Source: Xylographa opegraphella (Eukaryota). Taken from it: 43,408 bases of DNA. Numbering within the stretch: the first letter of the stretch is position 1; the number at the start of each line of letters is the position of its first letter. The stretch is taken from assembly GCA_022813865.1 (NCBI GenBank), contig JALDZX010000047.1, forward strand, positions 124,001 to 167,408, written 5' to 3'. Made by a program: the position numbers and the translations under genes. This document shows, in pieces, positions 7,170-42,180 of this stretch. A model generated the notes under the pieces. It ran no database searches, was not told the DNA's origin, and saw only the letters and a list, made by a program, of their open reading frames with translations.

Positions 7170-7248
7170 TTTTTTTTTTNNNNNNNNNNNNNNNNNNNNN
7201 NNNNNNNNNNNNNNNNNNNNNNNNNNNNNNNNNNNNNNGGGGGGGGGG
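7170..7248. other. Assembly gap (59 N, 7180-7238) between poly-T and poly-G runs
   Basis: Read directly from the sequence. Confidence 0.95.
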
Positions 7249-8760: not shown

Positions 8761-10171
8761 ATGACGCTGATGCTGCTGCGTGGTGGGCATGGCTTGCGGC
8801 CGCTGGCATGCCGGACCGTCGACGCTCTGCTGGTACGGGTGATGGGAGCCGGTTCGGTCAGGAGGTGCGGGATACGAGCGTTGGTGGGAAGGGAGCTGCG
8901 TATGGCGCGTAGTCGAAGTCTGAGGTCGACAGGTGGACCGAGTTCGAGCATGGGACCGTGTCGTGAATTTCGGAGATGCCTGGCTTCCGAACGCGAAGGA
9001 CCAGCGACGAGAGATCCGGACAGGTAAGTCCCCCTTCTGCAAACCACACCTGTCAACCCAACTTCCCCAGCTCACCCGGCCGCCCAGGTCGCCCACGCTC
9101 TCACCCCCAGCGACGAAACCCACGATCAAGACCCGGCTCCTGCGCCTCACCCCGCACGAGAACATCTACACCCTGCCCAACATCCTCACCTTCTCGCGCC
9201 TGCTCGCCGCTCCGCTGGTGGGCTACCTCGTCGTGCACGACCAGCACGCGTGGGCCCTCGGCCTGTTCGCCTACGCCGGCATCACGGACCTCGTGGACGG
9301 CTGGGTGGCGCGCCGGTGGCAGCTGCAGACGGTCGTCGGCACGGTGATCGATCCGATGGCCGACAAGGCGCTGATGACGGTGCTGGTAGGCGTGCTGGCG
9401 TGGAAGGGCGCGATGCCTTGTAAGTTGGACCAGCCGAAGGGCCTTTGCTTCCTCCAGAACCCCCCCAGAAGGCGAGATTTGGGACAATCTCAAGCTGTCC
9501 CCGTTCTGGGAATATGGGCTAACGGCTTTCTTTCTTTTTTCTTGCTTCCGCGTAGTGTGGCTCGCTGGTATCATTCTTTCGCGCGACGTCTTGCTCGGCG
9601 TCGCGGCCGTTTACTATCGTTATATTTCCCTGCCGCCGCCGAAGACCCTGGCTCGCTATTGGGACTTTTCGCTGCCGAGCGCGGAGGTGCGGCCGACGGG
9701 CATTAGTAAGGTTAATACAGCGCTGCAGCTGGGGTTGATTGGCTGGACGGTGGGCATGCCGTTGGTGGTTTGGGGGGGGTGGGGGGAGACGCTGGAGAGT
9801 GGGTTGGTGGGATTGCAGTAAGTTTTTTTTCTCTTTTGTCTTTTGCGGTGTTGCGGTGTTGCGGATGGGGAAGGTGGGTGCTGGTGTGGTGGATGTGGTT
9901 TCTGTGGTGTGTATGTGGCGAGATGAGTAGGGTGGCTCACCGTATGGTTTGTTGGGTTTCGTTTGATGTTTGTTTTTGAAGCAGAGGAAGAAGATGGGGC
10001 TTGGTTGTGTATTCGAATGCTGGCTGGCTGTGGTTACTGATTCTTGGTTGTTTTTGTAGGTACTTAGTTGCTACCACGACGGTCTGGAGTGGGGCTAGCT
10101 ATCTGTACACCAAGGACGCGGTCAAGATCCTGACGCCGGAGGAGAGCGAGCAGAGAGCGGCGAGGAAGTAG
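8761..10171 (+). CDS. CRD1: Cardiolipin synthase (CDP-alcohol phosphatidyltransferase family), about 322 aa; exons 8761-9023, 9088-9419, 9556-9817, 10060-10171
   Basis: HENIYTLPNILTFSRL, CDP-OH motif TDLVDGWVARRWQLQTVVGTVIDPMADK, YYRYISLPPPKTLARYWDFSLPSAEVRPTGISKVNTALQ and C-terminal YLVATTTVWSGASYLYTKDAVKIL. Three GTAAGT...YAG introns with GCTCAC/GCTAAC/ACTGAT branch sites give an in-frame 969-nt CDS. The Arg-rich N-terminus resembles a mitochondrial presequence. The first exon and start are less certain. Confidence 0.92.
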
Positions 10172-11549: not shown

Positions 11550-14348
11550 ATGTCTACTTCGTCGAAGGATGTGTTGGGTTCGGAGGAGAGGGAGACTTCG
11601 TCACTATCAGTACCTATTACTTCAGCAACAACATCTACTCTTCCAGCAGCAGCAACCTCTACTGTTCCAGCAGCAGAAGCGTCCTCTCCATCTACCGAAG
11701 CGTTCTTTTCGTCAACACCAATCCCTACGCCTTCAGCAACAACGTCTGGTCTGGCGGCAGTAGAGCCTCCTCCAGCAACACCGTCGAGTCTGTCGGAAGT
11801 AGCAACATCTTCTCCCTCAGCAGCGACGTCTAGTCTATCACCAGAAGCATGTCTCCTGTCAGCATCTTCTCTAGCAGCAGCAACATCTACTTCATTGCAA
11901 AGGTCTACTTCATCAGCGACTTCTACGCCGTCGGCGGAAGTGTCTTCTCGGTCGGCAGCAGTGGCTACTCTTTCAGGAGCAGCAGGGCCTACTCTTTCAG
12001 CAGCAACATCATCGCCATCAGAAGTAGCAACATCTTCTCTATCTGCAACGACATCTACTCCATCACCAGAAGCGTCTTCTCCACCGACCATAACGGCTTT
12101 CTCGTCAACATCACTGCCTACTCCTTTAGCGACTACGGCTAGTCTGTCGGCAGCACTACCTACCTCTTCAGCAGCAAGATCTACTTCATCACCAGCGTCT
12201 GCTCCGTTGGCAAAAGCGTCTTCTCTGTCAGAAGTAGCAACTTCCACTCTAGAAGCACCTACGTCTACTCCATCGGCTGAAGCGTCTTCGCTATCGGCCG
12301 CAATCTCTACTTCATCACCAACGCCTACTCCAACAGAAGCATCTTCTCTACCAACGTCTTCTGAATTAGTAGCAACATCCACTTCATCACCAACGCCTAC
12401 TCCGGTAGGAGCATCTACACTGTCAGGAGCAACGTCTTCGTCATCAGCAGCAGTACCTACCCCTTCAGGAGCAACATCTTCGCTATCAGGAGTAGCAACA
12501 TCTTCCCTATCGGCAGCGACGTCTTCTCTATCAGCAGCTACATCTACTTCATCACCAGCAGCGGCTTCTCTATCACCCTTAACGTCTTCTTCGCGAACGT
12601 CAGTGTCTGCTACACTAGCCAGCCTTACACAGGAGCTCATATCCAAGATTGCTTCGTACCTCGAACCTGGTAGAGGAATGAGAATTACGCTCGCAAACAC
12701 TCGAACCAACCTTCCCAAATACGCCACCATCTCGAGGAAGTTTCAATATGCAATTGAGCATCGGACCTTCAGTTCCATCGAATTGAATAGCGATGAACTC
12801 GATTACTTCACCCAAATCTTTGTTGGCTATCGTCGAAAGTGTCTAGCCACGCTCAAATACTGGCCTATTCTTGCTACCTATCGTCGTGACGTGTTTGACG
12901 AATACGAGGATCTCAATGATATCCATCTAAACAACCAACATTTTACCGATGCTGTTCTCGGCCTGTTTAATGTGCTCAGTTCTTGGGAGATGGAAGAAAC
13001 GAAAACGATAGAAGAAGAAGGGATCATTATTCGTAGTCGATCTATCCAACTATATCTACTCGAACCTAGATCACCGACGGACAGCGGATGCTTTTACCGA
13101 CGACGGACTGATCCCAGAACAAGTTTAGGCAAACATCGTTTCGAGCATTCTTTCTTACAACTTCTTGACCCCGAAGTTCTTCCAGACCTTACCAGGATAT
13201 TGCACTTCTCCGCCTATGTCTATCGCTTCCGCCGTATTGAACCCCGCTCTCTTGTGATGATCACAGCCTGCATGATTGGTCTGAAGTCCATTGATTGGAG
13301 ACTCAGCGACGAAGAAAAGGTGCTCCTGCCGACGGTACAGAACAACCGCTTCGGTATGATTATTTCGCTCTTATTTTTTACCATATTTATATATGAAGGT
13401 TCACACTAATACTTATTTTTTTTCCCCGTCCTTTTAGCATTCGCTCGAGCGCTCCCCTACCTCTCCACGGAAACTCTCACGAGTTTCCGGCTCTACTACG
13501 AGCGGGAAGTACCAATCGACCACGAGCACGAACCGCCGAGCGTTCTGCTGCCATCCTTCCCCTCGATCGACCACCTCAGCCTCGCCCTCCACACCCTCTC
13601 CCTCGCGCAAAACCTGACAGAGTTCACTCTGTCAGGTCCCTTCGTCGTCTCCTCCGTCCTCTTCTGGCCTGCTGCCGCCAGCGCCGCCGCCGCGATGCCC
13701 TTTTGGCCCAACATGCAGAAGGTCGTCGTGGAGTTCTCTCCAATTGCCCCGGATGGAAGTTGGTACTTCCTCCGGGAGGAACTCCGAGGCGCGGCGCTGG
13801 CCAAGCAGGTCGAACGGATGGAGGCGGCGACGGAGCGCGAGGTCCTCCTCCACCAGACGCCGGCGGACGACAGCTACAACGCGCTGCTGCACCGCGAGCA
13901 CGTGGGCGCCTACCCGGCGCGCGAGTTCCGCAGCGTGCCGGACCCGGCTGCTATGCCGGCCCTCATGCTCGCCCTCGTTCGCGCCGCGGCCCGCATGCCC
14001 CGCCTGCGGCGTCTGCACGTCGACGTCGCGCCCCGACTGCCGTTCGCCTTCGGCGTCCGCTACGTCGGTCCCGGGGAGGCCTACGATCCCTCGTGGGATC
14101 TAGGCAACACCCGCGCCGTGCATCGGCGCGCGGTGATGCCCCGGGACGACGTCGGACTGCCAAGGCTGTACTGGACGGTCGGGCGGTGGAGGCCGGAGGA
14201 GGAGGTGTTGCGGTTGTGGAGGGAGAGGCCGAGGGGGAGGGAGGAGGATGCGGTGTTGCTCGTGCGTTTTTACGCCGAGCGGGAGGCGACGGCGGCGGAG
14301 AGGGTGGATCTGGGGCCGGAGGTGGTGGGGGAGTGGGTGGAGTTTTAG
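11550..14348 (+). CDS. Fungal F-box-like domain protein with a long Ser/Thr/Ala/Pro repeat N-terminus, about 904 aa; exons 11550-13353, 13438-14348
   Basis: F-box-like LASLTQELISKIASYL...LPKYATISRKFQYAIEHRTF at about 12615-12770. C-terminal motifs RFAFARAL, DHLSLALH, LFWP...WPNM...PDGSWYF, PRLYWTVGRWRPEEEVLRLW are typical of an expanded fungal F-box family. Intron GTATGA...ACTAAT...TTTTAG (84 nt, carries the stop of the first ORF) joins the two ORFs in frame. Confidence 0.75.
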
Positions 14349-14412
14349 TGGGGGGGGGGGGTTGGAGTTTTTTGTGTGCGTGTTTGTGTGTTTGTGTGTT
14401 TTTTGTGTGTAT

Positions 14413-14644
<232 letters not shown>

Positions 14645-16049
14645 GTACGTGCGTGTTTTTCTTGTTTTTTTTTGTTTTCTGCCTTAATTTATATGAGGCT
14701 TTTTCCTCTACGGCATTCAAATGCAATGGGGGGAGTTTAGAGAGTCGAGATCTTGGAGAACGTGGATTTGCAATTGTGATTGTGATGAACATGATGCTTT
14801 CGGTGGCCAGGAGTGAGAATCAAAGCAGAGATAAGGGAGGAGGGTAGAGTGGTTTTTACGAATATTCTCTGCGTAGGCTGGCGTGTAGGGCGTGTGTATA
14901 CGGTGGCAATGGCTATTTGTCATGTTTTAGGAGTAGAAGTTTGAGTCTCGCGGCTTGTCTTGGATGTCACTTCAAGCATTACGGGCGAGGTTGGGACGGT
15001 ATCTTAGCTACTACATTGCCTTAAGTAGCTTGGAGTTGTCTTTTCCTCCAGGGTCGTAGAGAGCCTCGGGCGCTTGCTGCTTTCAATGATAGGGCGATGG
15101 CAGGCCCTGGCGGGACTTTTAAGCGCGTGATTAAGCCTTGTGTCTCTGAGAGCGATTATTATTCTGTCAGTATGAGGAGGTTTTAGGCTAGGGTGTGCAT
15201 GTATTTTGCGGAGCACGTATGAGTTGGCGATGTGGACGGGGGAATGGGTCCGAAGGAGTAGCTGGATTTTTCTTTGTTCCAGGGGGTATGTTACTGGAAC
15301 AAAATTATTACTGTCTGAGACAGTAAGGCTCCGATTCTTGGGACTACCTTTGTGGTTGCAAAATAGAAAATATTACTTCATAATCTTGCGGCTGCTAAAG
15401 TCATGGTGGGGCTGCTGCGCGTACTCGCTATCAGCACTCTTTGGGAAATGAAGAGTAAATACAGCATTAATATCAACGCAAAAGCAGGATGATCAGACGT
15501 TGAAACGAAAACATTAATCATCTGCAAACAACAGCACAGAGTTGCGGGAAGGCGTCCAATGGATCCTCTTTTGTGCATGACTTTCGAGACAGTGGCCGGG
15601 GTCGGCGATGCACGTCCAGCTGTCGGGACCTCTTCCATTGGTCCTCGCATCAAGGAACGGCAAAATATGCAATGCAAGGTGAAATGATGCATATCGTAAT
15701 TTCTGCCTCGTCGAACCGATGGACGTCAAAGCAAAGCCGTTTCGACAAAAGCCCATGTGTAAAACACCTGGTTCCAGTAGAGGTCGAACAGGATCGGCCG
15801 GAAGGCGCGACCCGGCGTCGTATGAAGACGTCACGCTTCGGGGACATCCTGGTCTGCGGAAGCAAGACAATTATTACTCTAGAAAAGCACGCCAAATTCC
15901 TCGGCTAGGCCCCGCGCTTTCTCTTTCAACATGCGAAAGTTGCAATTCTGCCTTGGCTTCATCCACTGCTCGTCAAGGCAATGAAGATAGATCATCACGA
16001 TCTGGGATGGCCCTGCTGACTTCCGCACTTCTACCCTGGGCTTTTGGTA

Positions 16050-21507: not shown

Positions 21508-21576
<69 letters not shown>
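21508..21576 (+). repeat. (AGGCAC)x11 microsatellite, the reverse complement of the GTGCCT array at 14515
   Basis: Read directly from the sequence. Confidence 0.95.
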
Positions 21577-22153
21577 CAAACCTTTCCCCATCCACTTCCA
21601 CAGCACACCCACTCTCCCTTCACCACCAACAGCGACCACACCCAGCATGGAAGCACGCACGTATTTCATAGCATTGCCTATCTACCGCTAAGCTCATCAA
21701 TCCCCCGCAAACATATGCTACAAGAACAAAAAGCCCGCCCCTCCTCACCGCCACCGCCACCACCACCGCCACCACAGCATCGAGCGCGCAAGCAAGATCC
21801 GCCAACAACCCACCCCCACCTGTCCCCGCCGAGATGGAGTGTGGAGCCGAGCAAAAACAGAAGAAAAGGGAAAATGGGGAGTCGCTATGCAGCCCGCAAC
21901 GCACGCTGGTTTGTGGTGCGGCAAGGCTTCGGCCGAGAGATGTGCGTTAGAAATACAGATGTGTGGACAAAAGTGTGCGGGAGTGTGGGGTCGAGGAGGG
22001 GATTGGTGCGGTGGTGCTGTGGTGGGTCCTCGTGAAGGACGTGTTTCAGACCAGGCACGCCGGGTGATGCCGGATGGAGCAAAGAAGATTTGCAGGCTCG
22101 AGATGCATTCGTGGCGGGTGAATGGTCAAGGGATCATGGACACTCGTCGTCCA

Positions 22154-28837: not shown

Positions 28838-31544
28838 CGCCGGGCAATATCCATATGTGGCAGTGGGTTGAGCCATTCTTCCGTAACCGGCAACCTACAC
28901 TCAGCGCCCTTGAAAGGAATGATCTAATCATTGGTGAAGTCATTATTGTTTGGGATATAATAAGATGATTCCCCCCAACCTTCCATCCTTCTTCACAGGA
29001 CACATATCCAATATAAGTAGATCGTTATTTTCAGCAGTTTTCTCGGGAGTCACACACTTGTTGGATGAGCTTCATTCGTGAAGCCGTCTTACGCAAAATC
29101 TACCCGCAAGAGTTGAGCAAACATTTCTCTTCTCCTCCCCACTCCTCGCGCCCACTTCTCTCATTCCTTCTCCACTGACCTTGGATGACTGTGTTGCCAT
29201 AGTGGCACAAAGACTTGATGAATTGGTGGGTGAGGAGGAAATACAGTACCTTTCGGCGGGTGTAGGTACTACATATATGTATGAAGGTCACTTGAGATGT
29301 TCGCAAAATCAACGGGATTAGGCCTCGATACTTGTGAGGTGGTAATGAGACTCTCCGGTAGTTCGAAAATCGCATACATACTGGCGGGATTACTATGATA
29401 CCCAGGATTGACTTGCGGGAGGTGTCTCTGTTAATTATAAGCCTGATCCTTCCACATATGACCAATAGTGGTCTTACACGACCTAAGGCTCTTTCAAGGA
29501 GTGATCACGATGCCCAAGTCCAGGTCTACCAATTCATCCGTCTCGGCCAAACACTCTGGATTAGCAATGTTGACACTGTATCAGCACGCAGTACACGGGG
29601 CGCATCTGATTGTTTACATGGCTCTGCTTACACCGCATGAGAGCTGATAATCATGTTTCGCGCTCCACGCCGATAATGTGGTAACACATCTCTCCGCCAA
29701 AACAATGGAAGTCTGCTGGATCCATGTTGCTCTGTATCAGGATCCGATATCTGATACGGATAGTGAATGCGGCGGAAGCCAGAGTGGTGCAGGCGAATAT
29801 GAAGACATGCATTTAAAGGCTTTTACCGAAGTGGGCGGATTCGAGGTAAGATATCAAAGCGAGGGAATATTATATCACATAGTTGAAAGGTGCAAAAGTA
29901 CCGGTCAACGGTCAGTACTGCGCACTGGTTTGTACAGTGGAGTGAAGGCTGTCTGGTGCAAGACTTGGAACCGTTAGAAACGAGTGAACCTGAATACAAA
30001 TATGCGCTGGACATGCAAAGCAGTGCCCTAGTACCTACTTTCAATAGTGATTCTGCGGCCTAGCGTTCAGGACGTAGTTTTTAAATCATAATTCTCTGCG
30101 CATTGTGGCGAGTCTATGTCGAACAGAGAAAATCGAAGATGTAAAGTGTTCTCACTCTCACTAACAGTTTGATGAGTGGGCATCAAGTACAGCAGAAAGC
30201 CTAGCTGAATGCTGTACTCCGATACTCTGGGTGAGATGTCTCGGTTGAAGAGCGGCGACGCCACGGATCGGTGAGTGAGCTGACCATAGAGTACAGGTTC
30301 TGCAGAATAGAGCAACGTGATACAGGATTGCTCACTTTGTACGGATATATCCTACCAATGATGTGAGGACAGTCGCCTGTCTTGACCTCTAGAAATACTG
30401 GACACAATATGATTCGTCACACCTTACGACCTGCATGGCTCGAAAAGGGGCAGATTTTATACCCATATTCTCAGGCGCTAAGGGACATACTAGACTCTCT
30501 TGCGTACAGACCTCCGTATGGCCCGTTCTACAGTCGATTAGTGCGTAGCAATGAGAGCGTTCTCATTGATGGTGTGTACGGATAGTATACCTAGGTTGCA
30601 GGGTTATTCCGAAAGCAGCTTAGCTCGTGTTTTTCAGGAGTTGGGTTAGATTGTTGTGCAGCCTTCACATTTATCCATTCCGTGCAACTTCTCTGCTTGG
30701 ACCACGAGATGGCAATGGCTCTTCCAGATCGGGTAGCTATTAGCTGTCCGCTGGCCATTTGTGACATGATCAGGTAGCTGTCAGCTGTCCGTCAGCCACT
30801 TGTGACATGGTGCCAGACATATCAGCCAATATTGGATAGCAGCGCTTAGATAGTTGATCAGGTCCGATCACTTTTGGACGGTAGGATGGAAAGAATTCTT
30901 TTTGGTCCTTAGAATGTCTTCACAACTGATGCACTTTCTCCACCGTCTCCTGTTGAACATTGACATCACCATTTCAGATGGCTGAACCAATGGTGCATCC
31001 TCAGCTTGTGTGTGTCCATGGAGGCTGACGTGTGGAGTAGCACAAGGGATCCAATTGAAGTGGCTATCGAAGCACTCAAATCGGTCCTAGCATTATTGCA
31101 TTTGCCGGACTGTCCATATTCGTGGAAATGCTAGCTACACGGACTTACTCCCTGTGGCCCCAGCATTTCTCTGCCAGCTTCCCACTGCCTCTTGCTCGGG
31201 AAATCTGATTCTCATATTTGAGCTTGCAGCAATACGACAGAATTCTGGTTGTACATTAAGCACCTACGGGTTAGTTGAAATAGTGCTCTCGGCTGGCACC
31301 TCACGTGAGGCGAAATGGCACGTGATGGATTACTCACCGCGGCGTCGCACTGGCGCTAGCCACTAGTTTAGGCATCCGTTCTATTTGCATCTTCCTTCTC
31401 TGTGCTTATTGACTGCTAGCATTTTGTAAATTCGCTATAATCACTTTTCAATTTGGAATATTAAGTATAGAAACTAGACTACTGCAGCTGCTTTGCCGTT
31501 CAGGGATATCATACATTACCCAAGGCTGAACGAGGAAGATAATT

Positions 31545-33333
31545 ATGCATGTCAGGATTCTCCCATTTACTGCAACATCGATCGTGCTTCTTGCACCCTT
31601 CATTGCTTTTAGTCGCGCGATTCTTCCCCGCAATGAAACACCGGTTGAAAAGAATGCTAATCATATTTTCAATGCAATCCACTCATCCATGCGACAATGG
31701 GGCTCCTCATTGAATCATAATGGCATGTCCTTCTTTCCTGCGTACTTGCCAGCGGGAACAGAGCTTTACCATGGCACAAGCACTCCGGACCCGGTCGAAG
31801 TCATGGAATGGCTCGCCTTCGAGCCTGAGCATGCCTTGAACTTTGCTTGGTGGATACAAGATGAGCTTGCTGTGAATGATTCGGAATATCACAATGTCAA
31901 TGGCCAATCAATTAAGTGGTTGCTGGATACTGATCAGACCAGGGCTGTCATGAGACAGACCCTAGAAATAGAACCAGGTGACCACACCAAGCAGTTCCAG
32001 GATAGTTTACAGCATGCTCTCCCTCACATGGGACGGCAGCCTCCCGCAAGAAAGCGATCAACTCCTAGGCCATCACCTGAAAGGAAAGCTGGGTGGCTTC
32101 ACACCTACATAATGAAACGTGACCTTCGCTTGGTCTATATCGACGGCCAATCTGCTGCGAAATCTTCGAAAGGTACCTTGGACTCGCAAGATTATGTCTT
32201 TGATATTGAAGCGAGGAAAACCCCTTGGTTCGATCGCAACAGAGCACTACATATGTGTAAGATTGCTGTGGAAGACTGGAATGAGCGTATCGACGGTTTT
32301 GTCCGAATGGAACACGGCTTCGAGCTCATCCTATGTGATTTTAAAAATAACGCTGATATGATTCGAGCTGAAAGAGCAATAGGCTATTTTCATACAGGCC
32401 AAAAGTATGTCACTATGGCAAATTTCTGGTTCTTGAAAGCCATTACAGCACGCTATCATGGTATTGGGATGAAGAGAGTATTGCTGGATTACTCTCGCAT
32501 GGTTACTGCTTTTGCTTATGATATCAATTTGTTCTCCGATCGGACAGAACTCCCTCGCTTGAAAGGTGTTTTGAGGGATGATCGGGCAAAGATTTTTGCG
32601 GACCTGTCAGAAAGCGTTACGCATGATAGCTATCAGCCTTTTCCTCAGTGGACCGACTGGCAAGCCATCGCAGATATGATTGTCGCAAGATATAGTGATA
32701 CTCTTTATGAACTTGCTTACAGCTCCTTCTACGACTCCCAGAAGCATGTTGAGGTGGGGATCAATCTGCTTATGCGACCTTTCATCGACACGGACTATCG
32801 GAATATCACTCTCGAAATCCAACGCTGCGCGTCACATTTCATGCCATCGAATTATACCTCCTCAATTCCCTCGGTTGCAGTTTCTAGTATCTCGGACCTG
32901 ATATGCTCGACATTGTTCGCAGCTGTTGATCAGAAGTCCCTCCACGAGGCAAGGCGGATCCTCCAGGAACTAGTCGAGTATCTCGCGTGGACGTCATGGA
33001 AGGAGTGTAGAGGGTGCCGGCGCGATGAGCTCTGCTATACCGCCATCTGTATGTAGACTATCTAGTTCACCTCTCCCCTTCTGGCATAACCCTGATATTC
33101 AAGCAAAACTCCCGAACCACATCGATACTTGCATGGCGGTGGAGAGAAGGGGATGATCTCTGCGATACTCTCTATTCCACAGGAGAGAACTTACTTGAAG
33201 AAATATGCTGAGGCGACAATCTTCTACAGGGCCATATGGGAACAAGGAAGACCACACACATCCGTCTTGCAAGAACATGACGGAAGCTTGGAACCGATCG
33301 AGTTATTGGAGCGCAGCTCATGGCCCTCAATGA
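31545..33333 (+). CDS. Conserved fungal secreted protein of unknown function, about 535 aa; exons 31545-33048, 33230-33333
   Basis: Signal-peptide-like N-terminus (MHVRILPFTATSIVLLAPFIAFSRA). Family motifs NANHIFNAIHSSMRQWGSSLNHNGMSFF, LYHGT, MEWLAFEPEHA, YIDGQSAAKS..GTLDSQD, DWQAIADMIVARYS, LAWTSWKECRGC...C..AIWPYG. Intron GTATGT...GCTGAG...TACAG (181 nt) restores IWPYGNKEDHTHPSC. Confidence 0.85.
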
Positions 33334-33895
33334 CTGATTGCTACTAAAGGCTTGTACTAGAAGTGCCGAGAATATAGCGCCAATGGTATCTGGCCGGCAC
33401 ACCACCTCAAGGATATTAGCGGCGCATTTCATAATCCGGAATCATGGTTCTTCAACAACGCTTTGATAGTGACATTCCGAGCCAGATCCTCCAATGAATA
33501 CCGAAAAATTACTTAAACATACACCCGGACATGGTCAAACTCCTCGAATACACCCTTCTTATCCAAACATATCCCAACTAATTATCTTACAATAAGTTGT
33601 CGCTGCTGCTGCAATTATCATCACCGTTGTCGCTGTCGCTGTATGGTTATTATCGCCGCTAATTTAAATAAAAAATAAAAAACGTTCGCAGTGAACGGCA
33701 GCGATGGCGGAACATTGACAGCAACAGCGACGCCGTACGACTTATTAGTAGAATAATTGGTTGGGCCCGTTGGGGTACAACTGGGTACGAAAGGGTTACC
33801 ATTATGCCCCATCTCCTCATCACTCCTATCCCTCTCACGGATGACATTCACGATATCCCACAACTCCGTTCAACCTTCGCTGCGACTTCATTGGC

Positions 33896-35746
33896 TCAGA
33901 AATACCAATTGAAATTGTTAGCCACGCCATCTTTAGCTCTCTGCCGCCTCTTCGAAACGATATCCTGCATTCGAAGACGCTTATGCTCCTCGGACTCTTC
34001 ATAGACCGGATCAGGACACAGCCTCTGAACATCATCCCAGGCCTCTTTCCGGCGGGTCCACCACACTGATCGCTGCGTGGAATTGGACTCGAGCTTCCAT
34101 GCAACTTCATACAACTCCTCAGCCTTGCGCCACCCTGTAAGATTCTTCATCGCAAAGTACTCTCGGGCCAGAGCCGCATACGCGTGGGCAGGGGGTTCAA
34201 AATCACTGCATCCGTGCATGCTGTCGTGTTCTTTGAGCCATACCAAGTCCCGCGGGAGAGGCATATTGGCCTTCTGTACGAGATTAATGCAAGCCAGTTT
34301 GTGCGGGATCCAAATATAATCGGCCAGATACATTCCAGAACAGATTTTATACGCCGTATCGTATTCTTTCTCGGCTTCTGCGTAGCGGCCAACTTTGTAC
34401 AAAGAATCTGCTCTTTCGGTGTGCAGAATGGCCTATTCTCTCTTGTCGTCTGAAACGGAGAACCACGCAGGCTGCCGAGCAATGGCGATTTCCAGTACTC
34501 GAGCCGATTTCTCAGATTGACCGTTTCGCCAGAACATGAGAGCCTCCTCGCGCAAGACCCGGACGTCCGTGATCCCAGCGTATGCTTTCAGATACTCGGC
34601 TTCTCCGCCCAACTTACTGGCCTCTGCCTCTTTCTTCGCTGCCAACCATTTTTGATTGTTTGGCTGATCCTCGACCGCCCAATCGAGCGATCTCATACCT
34701 TTCTCGTACTGCCCTTGTTTGATGAGTAGGATACCTTGTCGGGCACGACAGTCGACTACCCAGGGTGGATCTAGATACCCCGCTACATGGAGCGCTCTTT
34801 CCAAATCATCACCGTATTTAGATTCATCACCGCCTTCATCGACACATTTCTACAGCAGTACGAATGGCCGAGCAGACTGCGGAAACAGTTCAATAGCCCG
34901 ACGTGCCTTGGCTTCCGCCTCGACCACATCTCCTATCCAGAAGAGACGATCGCATTCATCCAAGTACCATTCAGCATTATGGAAATTCTCAACACGAAGG
35001 AGATCCATTTCGTGATGATCGGCCAAGTGTCTTTCCTCTTGCAAAGCCGCCTCTGCTCGCTGGAAAGCCAGGCTGGGTTCTTCGGTCAGCGATACAGGTC
35101 CGACAGCCGTCATTTCGGCTAGAGACAGCAAGTATTTCGGTTCAGGATCAGCCACATATGCGAGCTCATAGCGCAGGACAGCGAGCTCGTAGTCTCTCGC
35201 TTTTGTATTCGCGTCGAGCTGAGCTGATGCGAAGTTGACGAGTCGATCTGATGACTGATCTAGTGACTTTGCCGGTGTAATGGCTTCTTTCATCCGGTCT
35301 ACAAGACGAGATGTGATCGGTTCTGATGACGAAAAATATTTACCGGCAATTTCAAGAACTGCTTCTACAAAGCATATATCTAGTTCTCCAGATCGATCAT
35401 TCAGCAGGGGTTGCGCTCGAGCGTCTAGATACGCATGTTCGACTGTGGAGATACAGCTGAAATCTATTAGGTTCATATGTTGCGGTCTCTGGCCTAAGAG
35501 CTTCAGCAACCCTATTCGATATTGCAGGTTGTCCGGGTCCAGCTTTACAGCGTCCTGTTGTGTTTTGACCGGGTCCCATCCATAGCACGGGTCTCTAGGA
35601 TAGAGATATGCCTCGTGCGCTTGCTTCGCCTGCGCCTCTGCTCGTTCTTTGTTCTGAACGGCGGCGGCAGCCTGTATATGTTGTTGCACCGCCACCTTTC
35701 TCGAGGGGTAAGGCTGGTAATCTTCTGTCGAGCTGCAGTTGCCCAT
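33896..35746 (-). CDS. TPR-repeat protein with an N-terminal MGNCSS lipidation motif; one 617-codon frame interrupted by two in-frame TAG codons (34850-34852, 34433-34435); either recoded or a pseudogene
   Basis: The ORFs 34850-35746, 34433-34804 and 33896-34402 share one frame and are contiguous: ...ARPFVLL*KCVDEGGDESKYGDDLERAL... and ...SDDKRE*AILHTERADSLYKVGRYAEAEKEYDTAYKI. TPR-like helix pairs include AEWYLDECDRLFWIGDVVEAEAKARRAIELFP and RARQGILLIKQGQYEKGMRSLDWAVEDQP. Confidence 0.72.
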
Positions 35747-36143
35747 TGCGATGATCGTTGTTGTAGCACCAGATCCAGACTTGAAGGGAGGGCGAAAGGA
35801 AAAAAGAAGGAAGTGGAGAGCGTGGACATCAAGTGAAGTGGTGGGCTGTGTGACGTTAGATCACAGTAGTGAACAAGCTTGGCATAAGCCACCAAGCCAC
35901 AAGGCTGGCGATACATATATACGAGCGGGGTTGCGTAGTACTGTTATTCATTAGCTACTCTTTAGTGACAGGTCGCGAAGTCCGCGCGATCCTGGGTCTT
36001 CGCATATGGCTGTAAGCTATCTATATACCCTTTACTCAATGCATCGGTACTACTGGGGCTATCATCCCAGGCGTATCTGCATCAACTTGTGCTTTAATCA
36101 TTCTGCCTAGTCTGCCTAGTCTGCCTGATCTGCCTGATCTACC

Positions 36144-36390
36144 TTGGCGTTCTTACGCTTTTCGTCTCGCTTGACCTTCTTTTGCCCTTAATTGTTGCCC
36201 TGTTTGCGTTCTTATTAGCACGCTTCCTTTGCCTTTTCTGGAATCTTCGAATTTGTCGACGTACATTAGCTTTCTTGTCTATATAATAAAGATATCGATT
36301 TCGATTTCTGAGGACACGTTCGGCAAAACTTGTTTGAGCGGCATTTGCGAGTTTCCATATGTGGTTAAATAGACGCTACTTACTTGAAAT
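36144..36390 (-). mobile_element. Degenerate C-terminal fragment of a pogo/Fot1-type (Tc1/mariner superfamily) DDE transposase
   Basis: Manual minus-strand translation gives SSK*RLFNHIWKLANAAQTSFAERVLRNRNRYLYYIDKKANVRR...KRANK...KGK and, after a frameshift, KRDEKRKNAK. This resembles the recalled fungal pogo-like C-terminus (SKQRLQRHVQKLANAAQxSFAERALL...NNEAKVRR...KRGRKRK). It contains a stop and a frameshift and is absent from the ORF track. Confidence 0.65.
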
Positions 36391-38949
36391 CCTTCCGCTT
36401 TTTGTGCCATCTGTTCTCTATTGGCTGCCAGCACCTGGGTGGCTCCTGTCCACAACGATAATATCGTTTAATACGATGCTAACAATGGGCGCCAAGAAGC
36501 GCTTGAACAATTAGCCGAGACGCGAAGGATGTCGTGGGCCTTTTAATTTGTACGGCGTATCACTCGGACTTTACAGTTATAAAGCGGATAACCTGTTCAG
36601 TTTCAAAATCATATTCGTTATGAATGGTATTCGAATCTATAGCTTCGGATCACTAGAAGTAGTGCTCCATCGTGACTGAGGAGGGAGGAGGAAAGTCAAA
36701 GATAATGATTGACAGCGATCATTGAGATGATCGGCAGTGTATTTATACCGCGGTGTTCTTCCTCGACAGAATGCTTCCCGTGTGGACAAGTGGTCTGAGA
36801 CCAGTATAGCAATGTTCAAAATGTCAAAGGCTCGCGCGAAGAGAGTTGAGATGCTTGATAGGTGACTGTGGTTCGTTACGGGGTGTGGTTCGTGACCTAG
36901 GGCAGGATAATACGTATTGTGGAATGCAATTGGGCATAACAGGCCTGACTGGACGCCCTAGCTTACGAATGCTATTGTGATGCCTTGGGCTCAGGAGACC
37001 TGACGGTGTGAGGACACGGCGCTACCGACCGGTGAGGTCTCTGGAGGGAGGGTGCAGGAGGGAGCCGGACTTTGATACTGTTCAGATATCACGTCTGGAG
37101 GTGGGAGCCAAAGGGGAGGTTTAGTACTCCGTAATGATGGTATAGTCTGATTTCGAGTGGCCCAACGGCTGTGCTGAAGCTGGACGGGGCCTCTGATTAC
37201 TCCCGGCATCGGTCACGTATCTTCTTGGCCTTCAAGTCGCATTCGGATATGTTCAACACCTCCACGAGTCAAACCGTGGCGAGTCCGTAGCTAAGCAGGA
37301 ACAAAGAGATGTACAGGAACGGCGCATGACCGCAGGCGCCACTTGAGCAGTACTTTAAAGTGCCTGTACGCTGTAGTATACCTCCCCACTGCCTTCATGG
37401 GACTGCATTTGAAATCGGAGTGTATCCTTCGAGAGACTCCCAGATACCTGGCTCGTCTCGAGAGGCAAACAGAGTTTTGATACTATTAGTATGGTCGTTG
37501 AGATAAGCTCCACTCCCAGCCATCGACCGCTCATAAGGTCATCCCGACCAACAATTATGATGAAGACTGTCATCAAGCACCGTCGTCATATTCTGAATCA
37601 GAAAGCAAAAACTCTTATCTCGTCAGCAATTCTGACGGGATCTTTCGCAGGGACGTGACATTATTAGCGTTAAAAGCAGGACTCAGAGTTTCCTGTTCCA
37701 TTCTATCTCGGTAAGAATCTACGGTGTTTCGGAAATGGAGATCGGTAACAATTTTGCCACTCTAAGAATATTGAGCGATGTCGAATGCACCGGTAGAGAG
37801 ACGATCAGTCGCTTGCCCACGGACCGGCAACATCTATTTCTAGACGTGGGATCATCCAGCCTAGGACGTCCCAGCAGCAACGGATGGTAACATCCAGATC
37901 GTCATGAACAGATAGCCAGAGGAAGGACGAGAGCTTCTTATCCGAAGTTTGAGTCGATCAAACACGCCGATCATGTTAAATATAAGTGATCGACACGCTG
38001 TCGGTCTCTCAGCAACAGCGTGTCAAATTAAGCTCGTCCGCGAGGCCGGCTTGGCGCCCTTCATCTCCCGTTGCAGCAGTGCCGGTGTCAGGGGCGCCGT
38101 TAAGTGGAATTAGGTGTCAGAATTAGGGGGGATTACCACTTCGCTTCGCGGGAGATTGCTCCTAAACCTGCTAGGCGGCCGCTGGAAAGAGGGTGCGCTA
38201 CCCGGATTCGGCTGGCAAACGCACTCGTCTGTCGCATCATCCTCCCATCCCTCATCCTCTCATCCTCTCATCCTTCTCATGCAAGTCGGTGAGGAAAGCC
38301 TGTCGCAGCGACAGAGAGCATCTGATACAACAAATGTCCACCGTATTCGATTGAACATCGTCTAGGATTACACGTAGCTTGCTCTCTGACCCCGGGTTCG
38401 GATCCAATATGGGGTAAAGCTGCATCGACAGCCGTTGTGGCTTGCTTGACCAATTTCTCCAGGCGTTCCCCATCGGGCGTGGAGGCTTCAAGACGCTGAA
38501 CACGGCCCAGGAACGCGGGGAGGAGATGAGCACCACTCCATGGCCTGGTCGGGAGCGCCTGTCTAGTCGTGCAGCGAAAGAATGGGACCGGGCATGATTG
38601 GATCCAGAGATTGGACCTCTTTCCCATGCCTGCAACCACCGGCCAGCCAAGTTTCGACCCCGGTCACGTCTGACGACAGGACCCAACCTTTTGTCGATGC
38701 CATCTCTATTAGCGCCTCTTATCGACAAAATACCTCTGGCTTTCTTAACCTCTGTTCAGTTGCTCTTTGTGCGCTTTTGCTTTTTTGTAGTGCGGGTACG
38801 AGCTCGATTTCGTGATTGCCACTTGCTCTCCTTGTTGCTTGATGTCTGCGTGTGATCATGTGGTGGACCGTGAACGTGGATTTGTCTTTTGGCAGCTGTC
38901 ACTTGTAGCAATCCATTGATCGCAGAGCGACGCGCTGTACGCTATCATC

Positions 38950-41900
38950 ATGTACTGCAGGTGGTCACCGGTGGTGGTTGTAGCTGTACTAGCAGTGCTA
39001 AGCAGCTACACCACGGCCAATGACTTGCACGACATCCTTCCTCGTCAGGGCAGTAGCCCTTCGACAACAGACAATGCTTCCCCTTCTTCGACCTCCTTTG
39101 ACACCGCGGCTTCGACAACTTCTGGTTTGGGCTCGTCGGGTCTTTCCGTGACAACTTCAGCGGCCAGTGCTATCTCGTCGGAACCCTTATCGTCATTCAC
39201 CACGTCTATAAGACCCTCGTCAACCATACCGGCCCCGCTGAACAACACCTCTGCCCAGGATCCCAACAACGATGAGACTCTGCCACTCCTACCCACCATC
39301 ACGCCAGCACTGGGTATCGCTGGGGTCATACTCATCCTGTCGGGCACGGTATATACTCTGATAGGGATAAAAAACAAACTGGTACAGATATTCCTTTCGG
39401 TGGCGTACCTTACCGGTCTTTCAATCACCGTTCTGATCGTCTATGTTATGAACCCTCCTGTCAGTAATGGAGTTGAAGGAGCCTATCTAGTTGCGGCTGT
39501 GCTACCGGCCGTAATCTTGGGCACAGGGGCTTTACTCTTCAAGGACATAACAGAAGGGTTCGGTTGCATCCTGGGAGGTTTCTGTTTCAGCATGTGGATG
39601 CTTGTGCTCAAGCCGGGCGGTTTGATCACTTCAACCGGAGGAAAGGCAATTTTTATTGGTGTTTGGTGCTTGGCTTTCTTCAGCTCCGCCTTCAGTCACC
39701 ATACCCGATCTTATGGTTTGATCGGCTCGACTTCCTTTTCGGGTGCCACAATTCTTGTGCTCGGGGTGGATTGCTTCAGTCGTGCGGGTCTTAAAGAATT
39801 CTGGCTGTACATCTGGGGTAAGTACTGCAAATTATGGTTGACGATAATACTCTGACATACGATAGGTCTGAGTGCGAACTTGTTTCCACTGCTTACAACG
39901 ACATATCCCATCACCAGAGGGATCAGAGTTGAGATTGCTGCAATTATTGTTGTGACATTTATTGGCGTAATGTCTCAGCTCAAGATCTGGAAGGTGATCC
40001 AAGACAGAAGAGACAAACAGCTTATCGAGAAGCAGGAATCAGAACGTCAGCAGGAAATAGTCGATGAGGAGATCGGTCGAAGACTGGTTGCGGGAAATGG
40101 AAGAGAGCAAGAGGAATGGGAGGCAACATACGGCGACAATCCTCGCCCAGAGCATTTGCACAAAGATTCTGGTCTTGGTACTGAAGATAACAGTATTCGC
40201 AAGGTATCTATGAGCCCCGCGGACGTGGCCTCGTCTAGAGGGTCCCAGTCTCATATCTTTGAAATGACTCCCCTAGGGACCTCCGCTGCTGCCAAGTTTG
40301 ACAAAACCGCCGGAGGTCCTACGGTGGCCGTCTCAGTGGCACGGGACGAGGAAGACGAAAGCTATCCCGCTCCACGAAGGATGTCGCCGGAACAGCTCAG
40401 AATATCCAGTGTACCTAGCGCCTCACGTGGTTCCAGGGTGAATTCCGTTGACATCACACGCTACAACCCTGTTTCAGAGGTTAAGGACAAGCATCAGCGC
40501 TACAGCCTAAGCGGAGCACCAGATCTTGGTCCACTACCTTTCGAGAAACGGACGTCGTTCAAATCAGATAACGACGACGCATCCTCAGTTGCAACGGCCG
40601 CGTCATCGCAGCTTCCACAACGTAGATCAGCACAACGCTTTTCCGGTTCTTCACTGCTCAGGAAACTCTCCAAGCGATCGCAGCGCCGTTCGAGGCAGAG
40701 ATCGACTTCCGTCGAAGGCCCTAGTAGTACCCTTCGAGACGGAACTTCACTCGCATCTACTCATAACCAAGGTAGACAAGACGGCGTCTCGAGTAGGGAG
40801 AGTCGCCATATCCGTGAAAACTCCATTGGGTTGTCCATACTTCCCGAGGACGTCTTCCTTCCGGAGAGCCCACGAAGTACAGTAGCTTCCAGTGGTGATC
40901 ATGTTGCTCAAGCGAATAATACAAGATGGGCATTGGACGAGACGGCGAAAAGGCTGGCTGCTGAATATGCTGGAGAGCTTGGAGGGCTTAGCGACAACGG
41001 CACATCAAGTCCTGAAGAAGTGGTGGAGCAAGCGAAATCGCTCCTGCGACCATTATCAGAAGTACCAGAGGAAACAGACTACAATACGCTTTCAAGAGAC
41101 CCGTCCCAATTATCCAAGCTCTCAGCACCAAAGCAAGAATTGGAAGGTCGCCTGCCAGAGGCCACCTCCAAGGTCGCCAGTGTCTATCGGACCAACGAGT
41201 GGGCCAAGCACCTCGACAGAGCCGACAAGCCTGAAGTCGACCGACTCAGCCTGTTGAAACCATCCAACTCGCAAGAGTCCGACGAGTCAGAAGAAGCCGC
41301 GGCACCAGTCGACATCCAAGCACTACAGCAAACCGCAACCGGGGATTCCCCTCCCTTGACACAACAGTCCTCGGAAGAGTCCTTATCCCGCCGCCCACGA
41401 TCCCCATCCAACATCTCCCGCAACTTCCTCTCCGAGTACATGGCCTCCCAAGCCCTGAGCTCCCACCCCAGCAAGTCCTCCCTAGCCCGCAAACCCGTCG
41501 GGTCCCTCTCCCGCAACTCCTCCCAGCAAAGCAGCGACGCCCCCCTTCGACCCAATTCGCTCACGGCGCTCAAAACGCGCACCCTCCGCAGCAGCTCGAG
41601 CCCGATCGTCGCATCTCCGATCGAGGAAGGCGTCGAGAGCAGCTTCCCAACCCGCTACGTCTCCTCCCCCGCCGCATCCACCACCCTCCTCGGCAAACGA
41701 AGCACCATGCTCCGCGACAAACACTTCTCCCAACCGACCCCGTCCACCGGCCTCCCGGCCTCGCCCTCCGACCCCGCCTCCCTCGCCATCTACGGCGCCA
41801 ACCCCCTCGAAGACGACAACATGCCGCTTGCGCAGCGGCGCTCCCTCCTGCAAGCCCAGACGCCGCAACACTCCTCCACCTACCCGCTCCCTGCCGCCGC

Positions 41901-42180
41901 ACGCCGCGCCTCCCAGCTCGCCCACTTCCGCTCCTCCCTCGCCGCCGACCTCTCGACCCCGAAGCAGCCTACCCACGAGACTGAGATTCGTCGGGCTGAG
42001 CTGCTCGCCGCTAAGCACCAGGCCCAGCTGGCGGAGCAGCAGGCCGTGCGTCGTAGCTTGGAGCGCGACGTCGCGTGGGGCCAGGCCATGCGGCGCGGGG
42101 AGATGCTGGATGCGCACCGCGTAGTCATGGGGAGGATGCAGAGGGGCGTGAATGAGCGGTTGAGGAGCGGAACGGGGTGA
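38950..42180 (+). CDS. DUF4203 (TM7S3/TM198-like) multi-pass membrane protein with a long disordered C-terminus, about 1060 aa; exons 38950-39817, 39866-42180
   Basis: Signal peptide, then a Ser/Thr-rich ectodomain, then LPLLPTITPALGIAGVILILSGTVYTLIGIKN...ITEGFGCILGGFCFSMW...SFSGATILVLGVDCFSRAGLKEFWLYIW, LFPL.T.TYPITRGIRVE, YRTNEWAKHL and C-terminal MRRGEMLDAHRVVMGRMQ. A 48-nt intron GTAAGT...CTGAC...ATAG joins the ORFs in frame. Confidence 0.9.

Follow-up and report, generated by a model that had tools for sequence, protein, structure and literature searches.

Two in-frame TAG codons in an otherwise intact TPR-like gene of Xylographa opegraphella: a probable young pseudogene, or a possible target of restorative editing?

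A TPR-type gene of Xylographa opegraphella, a lichen-forming fungus of the class Lecanoromycetes, carries two in-frame TAG codons and has probably been inactivated only recently, either as a young pseudogene or as a null allele carried by the sequenced individual, with nothing that rescues the gene. The data show that both stops exist, that the relatives are intact at the sites they cover, and that neither stop lies in a canonical intron; loss of function, how recent it is and which hit came first are inferred. An earlier note on this DNA had offered two readings, restorative A-to-I editing and a young pseudogene, and the latter is the better supported.

We propose that a lineage-specific TPR-type scaffold gene took two single-base nonsense changes in this genome. 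The first would be a G-to-A transition that turned a conserved tryptophan codon (TGG) into TAG at codon 299, and the second would have produced TAG at codon 438, where the relative P0003 has tyrosine. Translation would then stop after residue 298, so that the product would lack all recognisable TPR motifs and 16 of the 28 helices predicted for the full protein.

Results and discussion

One reading frame with two internal stops

The features of the gene are given below by their positions in the window, that is, the whole stretch of DNA analysed (43,408 nucleotides).

33896..35746, minus strand: complete frame of the TPR-like gene; its 617 codons count both in-frame TAGs and the final TGA; homology to P0003 over 95% of its length
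34853..35746, minus strand: segment 1, codons 1-298, running from the ATG up to the first TAG; 56% identity to P0003
34850..34852, minus strand: first internal stop (TAG1), codon 299, context CTG-TAG-AAA; tryptophan in both relatives
34436..34849, minus strand: segment 2, codons 300-437, between the two TAGs; 53% identity to P0003, TPR-like matches present
34433..34435, minus strand: second internal stop (TAG2), codon 438, context GAA-TAG-GCC; tyrosine in P0003, the sole relative covering the site
34340..34426, minus strand: best Pfam TPR motif, residues 441-469, beginning 3 residues past TAG2
33899..34432, minus strand: segment 3, codons 439-616, conserved more strongly than the other two; 65% identity to P0003, its last 122 codons being the GenBank model P0005
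33896..33898, minus strand: terminal TGA; the frame and P0003 both end in ...FNWYF

Translation of the minus strand from the ATG (MGNCSS...) gave exactly two internal stops, X299 and X438, which separate open pieces of 298, 138 and 178 codons. The frame is otherwise undamaged, with start and end intact and no frameshift; the 954 nt past TAG1 contain neither a frameshift nor any premature stop other than TAG2. Such a frame is far beyond chance: the intact 587-residue homolog P0003 aligns over 95% of it (E 1.8e-199), and it ranks among the longest two-stop stretches within the window. Internal ORFs that start with ATG downstream of the stops have 87 and 145 codons for amino acids.

The earlier note had described one frame with two TAG lesions and no frameshift, and its coordinates and codon contexts agree with the translation; the ladder of products that it listed (298, 437 and 616 residues) also has the right lengths for the three stop positions. 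It had further spoken of three annotated ORFs forming one frame. The single frame stands, but the GenBank models of the locus number two (418 and 122 residues), not three.

Both premature stops are genuine in this genome. A Logan contig from run X1 (18,437 nt, word depth 160.4) was compared with positions 33700-35900 of the window, and 0 differing letters and 0 gaps were found, so that the TAGs are not the consensus slip of one assembler. X1 is probably the window's source sample, and its contig is a separately built sequence and not an independent specimen. This agreement at a depth of about 160 bears out the two TAGs, which the earlier note had wanted checked in the raw reads. No match to the locus of at least 80% likeness was obtained in runs X2 and X3 of the same study, which are from other organisms and where a false blank is possible.

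Relatives and the codons at the two sites

When 5.8 billion clustered proteins were searched with a word index at near and shorter lengths, P0003 and P0004 were the only relatives returned apart from the window's own models. P0004 was also among the hits when 1.84 billion representatives were scanned exhaustively with HMMER, and P0003 was absent there by name; the remaining HMMER matches were weak and generic TPR proteins (E 7.6e-07 or weaker). By both protein searches, the family appears to be very small, comprising three loci in X. opegraphella and the two relatives. A gene of such a tiny, lineage-specific family is therefore of a readily lost kind.

P0003 is an intact protein of 587 amino acids with 56-58% identity over 95% of the frame, and P0004 is a 323-residue model with 67-68% identity that covers residues 69-386. 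The P0004 model breaks off abruptly near residue 386, and this copy may be interrupted as well. The alignment is ungapped and well conserved on either side of each stop, with P0003 running through both sites and P0004 through the first. In the TAG1 column both relatives have tryptophan (VLLW-D/KC), and in the TAG2 column P0003, the one relative there, has tyrosine (IEY-SILH). In the alignment with relatives, which the earlier note had suggested for orthologues, both proteins have sense codons at the stop sites that they cover.

Because tryptophan is found in both relatives, TAG1 is explained by a single G>A transition from TGG, and no class of spontaneous change is commoner than such transitions. 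If tyrosine were ancestral at the second site, TAG2 would have come from TAY by a transversion. A first metagenome scan for orthologue DNA yielded no relative. A second scan returned one locus, L001, which was rejected as a relative because its likeness to the protein is confined to one TPR motif of 29 residues (52% identity).

A predicted TPR-type scaffold

Pfam returned matches to the TPR clan only, all of them downstream of TAG1. The best was TPR_14 at residues 441-469 (24.4 bits against a cut-off of 23.5), accompanied by eight weaker TPR models; this places the protein among TPR proteins by a match that is marginal and generic. TPR patterns do persist past the stops, as had been noted from the sequence, with every Pfam TPR match after TAG1 and the best one 3 residues past TAG2.

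An AlphaFold model built on a three-sequence alignment was of low confidence (pLDDT 66.6, pTM 0.35). It was predicted to be helical throughout, with 28 helices, the last of which would reach residue 615. Foldseek gave 113 PDB matches at E<=0.001 with TPR superhelices at the top, at TM-scores of about 0.2, and the language-model neighbours were all TPR clusters. Taken as a generic TPR assignment, these predictions point to an all-helical TPR-type scaffold of about 616 residues. Such a protein would share its all-helical repeats with the TPR superhelix scaffolds (the O-GlcNAc transferase TPR domain 1w3b, Tom70/71, Ctr9 and the APC/C TPR subunits), whereas it differs from them in a TM-score of about 0.2 on a low-confidence model and in a sequence family of three loci. 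In this model, the stop at codon 299 would remove 16 of the 28 helices together with every detectable TPR motif.

Little decay beyond the two stops

RIP was judged by a high TpA/ApT index, a low (CpA+TpG)/(ApC+GpT) index, AT-richness and many C>T/G>A changes, with numerical thresholds taken from general knowledge. The locus has a GC content of 0.51, a TpA/ApT of 0.62 and a (CpA+TpG)/(ApC+GpT) of 1.37, and its frame retains 16 TGG, 18 CAG and 12 CAA codons. These indices, the GC content and the intact codons speak against a RIP-mutated locus. The remark in the earlier note that the locus is not AT-eroded and keeps many unmutated CAA, CAG and TGG codons was accordingly correct, and the RIP variant of its pseudogene reading finds no support, the dinucleotide indices showing no RIP signature. 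A transposase relic that it had placed 400 bp away was likewise not recovered: six-frame translations of 35950-38252 and 33057-33897, with stops as X, gave 0 Pfam families in all 12 translations at E<=0.01.

With P0003 as the outgroup, changes unique to the X. opegraphella frame were found in 17 of 216 columns upstream of TAG1 and in 6 of 87 downstream, and those unique to P0004 in 23 of 216 and 8 of 87, respectively. No faster protein change was seen downstream of TAG1 in this comparison, which has low power and would miss additional divergence of a few per cent since inactivation. With no sign of relaxation past TAG1, the stops are either recent or tolerated, and the rate test cannot separate the two.

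Of all single-base substitutions possible in the coding sequence, about 5% give rise to a stop codon, which is TAG in 42-44% of cases. Two random nonsense substitutions would thus both be TAG with a P of about 0.18 (18-19%), and the TAG-TAG pair is not unusual by chance.

The locus resembles a young unitary pseudogene or nonsense null allele in that disabling point substitutions are seen against intact homologs with no further decay yet, and in that the gene predictor hid the stops by an implausible intron and split models. It differs from a typical young pseudogene in having two nonsense hits without a frameshift, both of them TAG, which is also the pattern of an editing target. Several observations speak against the pseudogene reading: the gene is otherwise undamaged, no rate increase is seen past TAG1, and conservation is highest beyond TAG2 (65%). 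Moreover, both stops are the very stop that fungal A-to-I editing turns into tryptophan, and TAG1 was ancestrally tryptophan.

Restorative A-to-I editing

The alternative put forward in the earlier note is restorative A-to-I editing; in this reading a deaminase of sexual tissue would convert both UAG codons to UGG (Trp), and the full 616-residue protein would be made at that stage only. We regard this as unlikely, and there is little reason to expect that both TAGs are bona fide restorative editing sites, changed from UAG to UGG during apothecium development in X. opegraphella.

The locus does share features with the premature-stop-codon (PSC) 'pseudogenes' of Fusarium graminearum and Neurospora (for example PUK1, AMD1 and PSC genes), in which UAG becomes UGG at the sexual stage via Tad2-Tad3-Ame1. 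It is an intact, conserved ORF, collinear with P0003 and P0004, that contains two premature TAGs and no other lesions, and tryptophan is ancestral at one of them. The low-power rate test, which shows no relaxation downstream, is also consistent with editing. Genes with two such sites have a precedent in F. graminearum (6 of 71), and the available part of the same paper states that premature TAG stops in Fusarium are "mainly derived from TGG", that they 'often' arise from non-TGG codons too, and that premature stops at such sites occur in single species of other Pezizomycotina classes (PMC10776026).

The host, however, is a Lecanoromycete. As far as the accessible portions of three papers go, Tad2-Tad3-Ame1 acquired its role in mRNA editing in the ancestor of the Sordariomycetes, editing in the Pezizomycetes is independent, and Aspergillus nidulans and Botrytis cinerea showed none (PMC11156358, PMC10776026, PMC11087585). 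Orthologues of Ame1, a DUF726 protein, are widespread in ascomycetes, but the excerpt that states this also reports that the Ame1-Tad3 interaction was born in the Sordariomycetes and that a Leotiomycete Ame1 does not work; interface residues of Tad3 and Ame1 are reported there as essential in Fusarium (PMC11087585). In the available text of a review, genome-wide editing is absent in an Aspergillus and a Botrytis, and which other Pezizomycotina classes edit is "to be determined" (PMC11156358). A full-text literature search found no report of A-to-I mRNA editing in lichen fungi or Lecanoromycetes; the class came up there only in a survey of residues. Editing in a lichen fungus would need a wider spread of the known system, or another independent origin.

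The local sequence and structure also miss the preferences known from Fusarium. Editing there favours C/U at -2, G at +2, and A/G at both +3 and +4, according to the part of the source available (PMC9600606). TGG can become TAG or TGA by one G>A transition, but of these two stops only UAG has the U at -1 that fungal editing prefers. TAG1 (G-U-[A]-G-A-A-A) has the preferred nucleotide at 2 of 4 free positions and TAG2 (A-U-[A]-G-G-C-C) at 1 of 4; combined, 3 of the 8 positions not fixed by UAG agree with these preferences, which are soft rules derived from Fusarium. In the predicted folds of 31 to 81 nt, TAG1 has its A in a stem (P unpaired 0.01-0.33), and TAG2 is predicted to lie in the 5-nt loop of a weak hairpin (-1.8 kcal/mol) only in the short windows of 31 and 41 nt. 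Preferred neighbours together with a hairpin loop are thus found at neither site.

Two further points weigh against editing, namely the probability of about 0.18 for a TAG-TAG pair by chance and the residue at the second site. Because the only relative covering TAG2 has tyrosine, a UAG>UGG change there would give tryptophan and would not restore the residue of that relative. The tryptophan of the relatives at TAG1 is predicted equally by editing and by a plain nonsense mutation. Overall, the pattern is compatible with editing, for which the prior is low in Lecanoromycetes, and nothing tested favours it over plain nonsense mutation.

If editing were true, at least some lichen-forming Lecanoromycetes would edit, and a lineage-specific TPR scaffold would be switched on only at the apothecium stage. 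Sexual-stage A-to-I mRNA recoding would then extend to lichen-forming fungi, the number of fungal classes known for stage-specific editing of this type would rise to three, and the editing system would be older than the Sordariomycete ancestor or would represent one more independent invention. The locus offers two PCR-sized test sites for the question of which Pezizomycotina classes edit, as it is posed in the available part of the review (PMC11156358).

A functional short form

A further reading is that the 298-residue N-terminal product, or products from internal starts, are functional and that the remainder was orphaned as a tail not long ago. The first ORF has its own ATG and is undamaged, and ATG-started ORFs of 87 and 145 amino acids lie downstream, as this reading would have it. 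Nevertheless, the 298-residue product has no TPR motif detectable by Pfam and would be without 16 of the 28 predicted helices, the C-terminal third is the most conserved part of the family, and the full-length P0003 has everything in one chain. A functional short form therefore seems doubtful to us, and loss of function of the whole gene is preferred.

Introns and the deposited gene models

The best protein match of the frame was MCJ1286567.1, "hypothetical protein MMC26_005913 [Xylographa opegraphella]" (P0002, 418 amino acids). This GenBank model equals the frame in the window except at two points: it is without codons 281-299, and it ends at TAG2. The missing codons correspond to the following feature.

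34850..34906, minus strand: 57-nt piece, codons 281-299, cut by P0002 as a GC..AG intron; no CTRAY branch motif

The piece starts with GCACGT and ends with TGTAG, and its acceptor AG is the AG of TAG1 itself. The peptide cut out consists of 18 residues plus the stop position, and it is kept in both relatives (ARRAIELFPQSARPFVLL-W). The second GenBank model, P0005 (122 amino acids), is the last part of the frame.

Taken at face value, P0002 describes a rescue by splicing, in which a 57-nt in-frame GC..AG intron, with an acceptor born of the TGG>TAG change, removes TAG1 and the protein ends at TAG2 after 418 residues. The deposited model was built in this way, the length of the piece is a multiple of 3, and it is near that of three introns read in the window. 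Its donor GCACGT, however, agrees with GTAAGT in just 4 of the 6 letters, and no CTRAY branch accompanies it; the 18 residues and the tryptophan removed are conserved coding sequence in both relatives, and TAG2 is left untouched. We consider such a rescue very improbable.

More generally, an intron was taken to have a GT or strong GC donor, a CTRAY branch and a YAG acceptor, and to remove a piece that is unconserved as protein. Of the 507 donor-acceptor pairs that span TAG1, 0 had either a good donor or the combination of a moderate donor and a branch motif. At TAG2, all candidates share one GTAAGT donor inside conserved coding sequence (ASKLGG); they lack a branch motif, and their removal would cost the protein 60 to 84 conserved codons. 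Judged by these sequence features, no canonical intron appears to span TAG1 or TAG2, in line with the earlier statement that no convincing intron removes either stop.

P0002 and P0005 are best read as workarounds of a gene predictor for the two stops, with an invented intron. If the locus is a plain young pseudogene, its main value lies in correcting the deposited models (418 amino acids with an invented intron, and a 122-residue fragment), and it illustrates how gene predictors conceal nonsense lesions.

Readthrough, sequence error and stop codon usage in the window

The letters after the two stops are TAG-AAATGT and TAG-GCCATT, with a purine (A and G, respectively) first in each. A purine after the stop is a good termination context, and leaky stops are marked by motifs such as stop-CUAG and UAG-CARYYA. 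Neither of these two readthrough motifs was present at either TAG. No tRNA gene, and thus no suppressor tRNA, was found in the window. Readthrough of both UAGs is at odds with these observations and with the use of TAG as the end of other ORFs, and error or heterogeneity in the sequenced material, for which it could be said that one sample only was available and that X1 may be the same sample, is countered by a separately built contig at a depth of about 160 with no alternative letter; together these explanations have a very small chance of being right.

Across the window, 12 in-frame single stops are flanked by open segments of at least 100 codons, and four of them, all outside the TPR gene, were inspected. 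Three of them, TGA at 39853 (TM7S3/TM198 gene), TAA at 13407 and TAA at 9025, lie in canonical introns (GTAAGT/GTATGA...CTRAY-like...AG), and the stop at 21620 lies within a GT-rich, low-complexity stretch. The other six were assumed to be chance or alternative-frame cases. TAG ends the long ORFs of Gti1/Pac2 and CDP-alcohol phosphatidyltransferase and the ORF at 31530-33056, and it is thus, as the earlier note had said, a normal stop in other genes of this region.

Gene models of the TPR gene and of a close relative

The tetratricopeptide repeat (TPR) gene is covered by two GenBank models. The first (MCJ1286567.1, 418 aa) drops 57 nt (window 34850-34906, minus strand) as a GC..AG intron; the dropped sequence is conserved coding sequence, and the acceptor AG of this intron is part of the premature TAG. 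The tail of the gene is covered by the second model, P0005 (122 aa). Both models look like annotation artefacts.

The model of the closer relative, P0004, is only 323 aa long, although it lies on a contig of 7,686 nt. Its first residue corresponds to residue 69 of the 617-codon TPR frame, where an internal Met stands in place of Leu, and it ends abruptly near residue 386, followed by an unrelated tail of 7 residues. It is possible that this copy, too, is interrupted, or that its model is wrong.

N-terminus and surroundings of the TPR gene

The predicted N-terminus of the TPR protein, MGNCSS (window 35729-35746, minus strand), contains Gly2, Cys4 and Ser6 and resembles an N-myristoylation/palmitoylation signal. 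The full-length relative P0003 has a different start and lacks an N-terminal signal of this type. Short tandem repeats with (CTGCCTAGT/CTGCCTGAT)-type units were observed upstream of the TPR gene (window 36100-36140, plus strand). A neighbouring ORF had no match in Pfam:

31545-33056, plus strand, 503-aa ORF with an N-terminal hydrophobic stretch

In-frame stops within introns

Elsewhere in the window, long open segments are separated by the following in-frame stops:

38920-42180, plus strand, TM7S3/TM198-domain gene, interrupted in frame by the TGA at 39853-39855
13356-13437, plus strand, TAA at 13407, inside a canonical intron
9024-9088, plus strand, TAA at 9025, inside a canonical intron of the CDP-alcohol phosphatidyltransferase gene

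The TGA at 39853-39855 lies inside a canonical intron, GTAAGT...CTGAC...AG (about 39819-39866), so the split of this gene is nothing unusual.

Skewed and repetitive regions

Several frames on both strands (447, 312, 241, 239 and 236 codons) are simultaneously open in window 13397-14850, a stretch with strong base skew (GC skew 0.345 and AT skew -0.416 at 14001-15000). It had no match in a Pfam search and has the appearance of a repeat region or of low-complexity coding sequence. A short tandem (GCCTGT)n run was observed near 21540-21590 (within window 21540-21600, minus strand), and the window contains two N runs, at 2172-2221 (50 bases) and 7180-7238 (59 bases).
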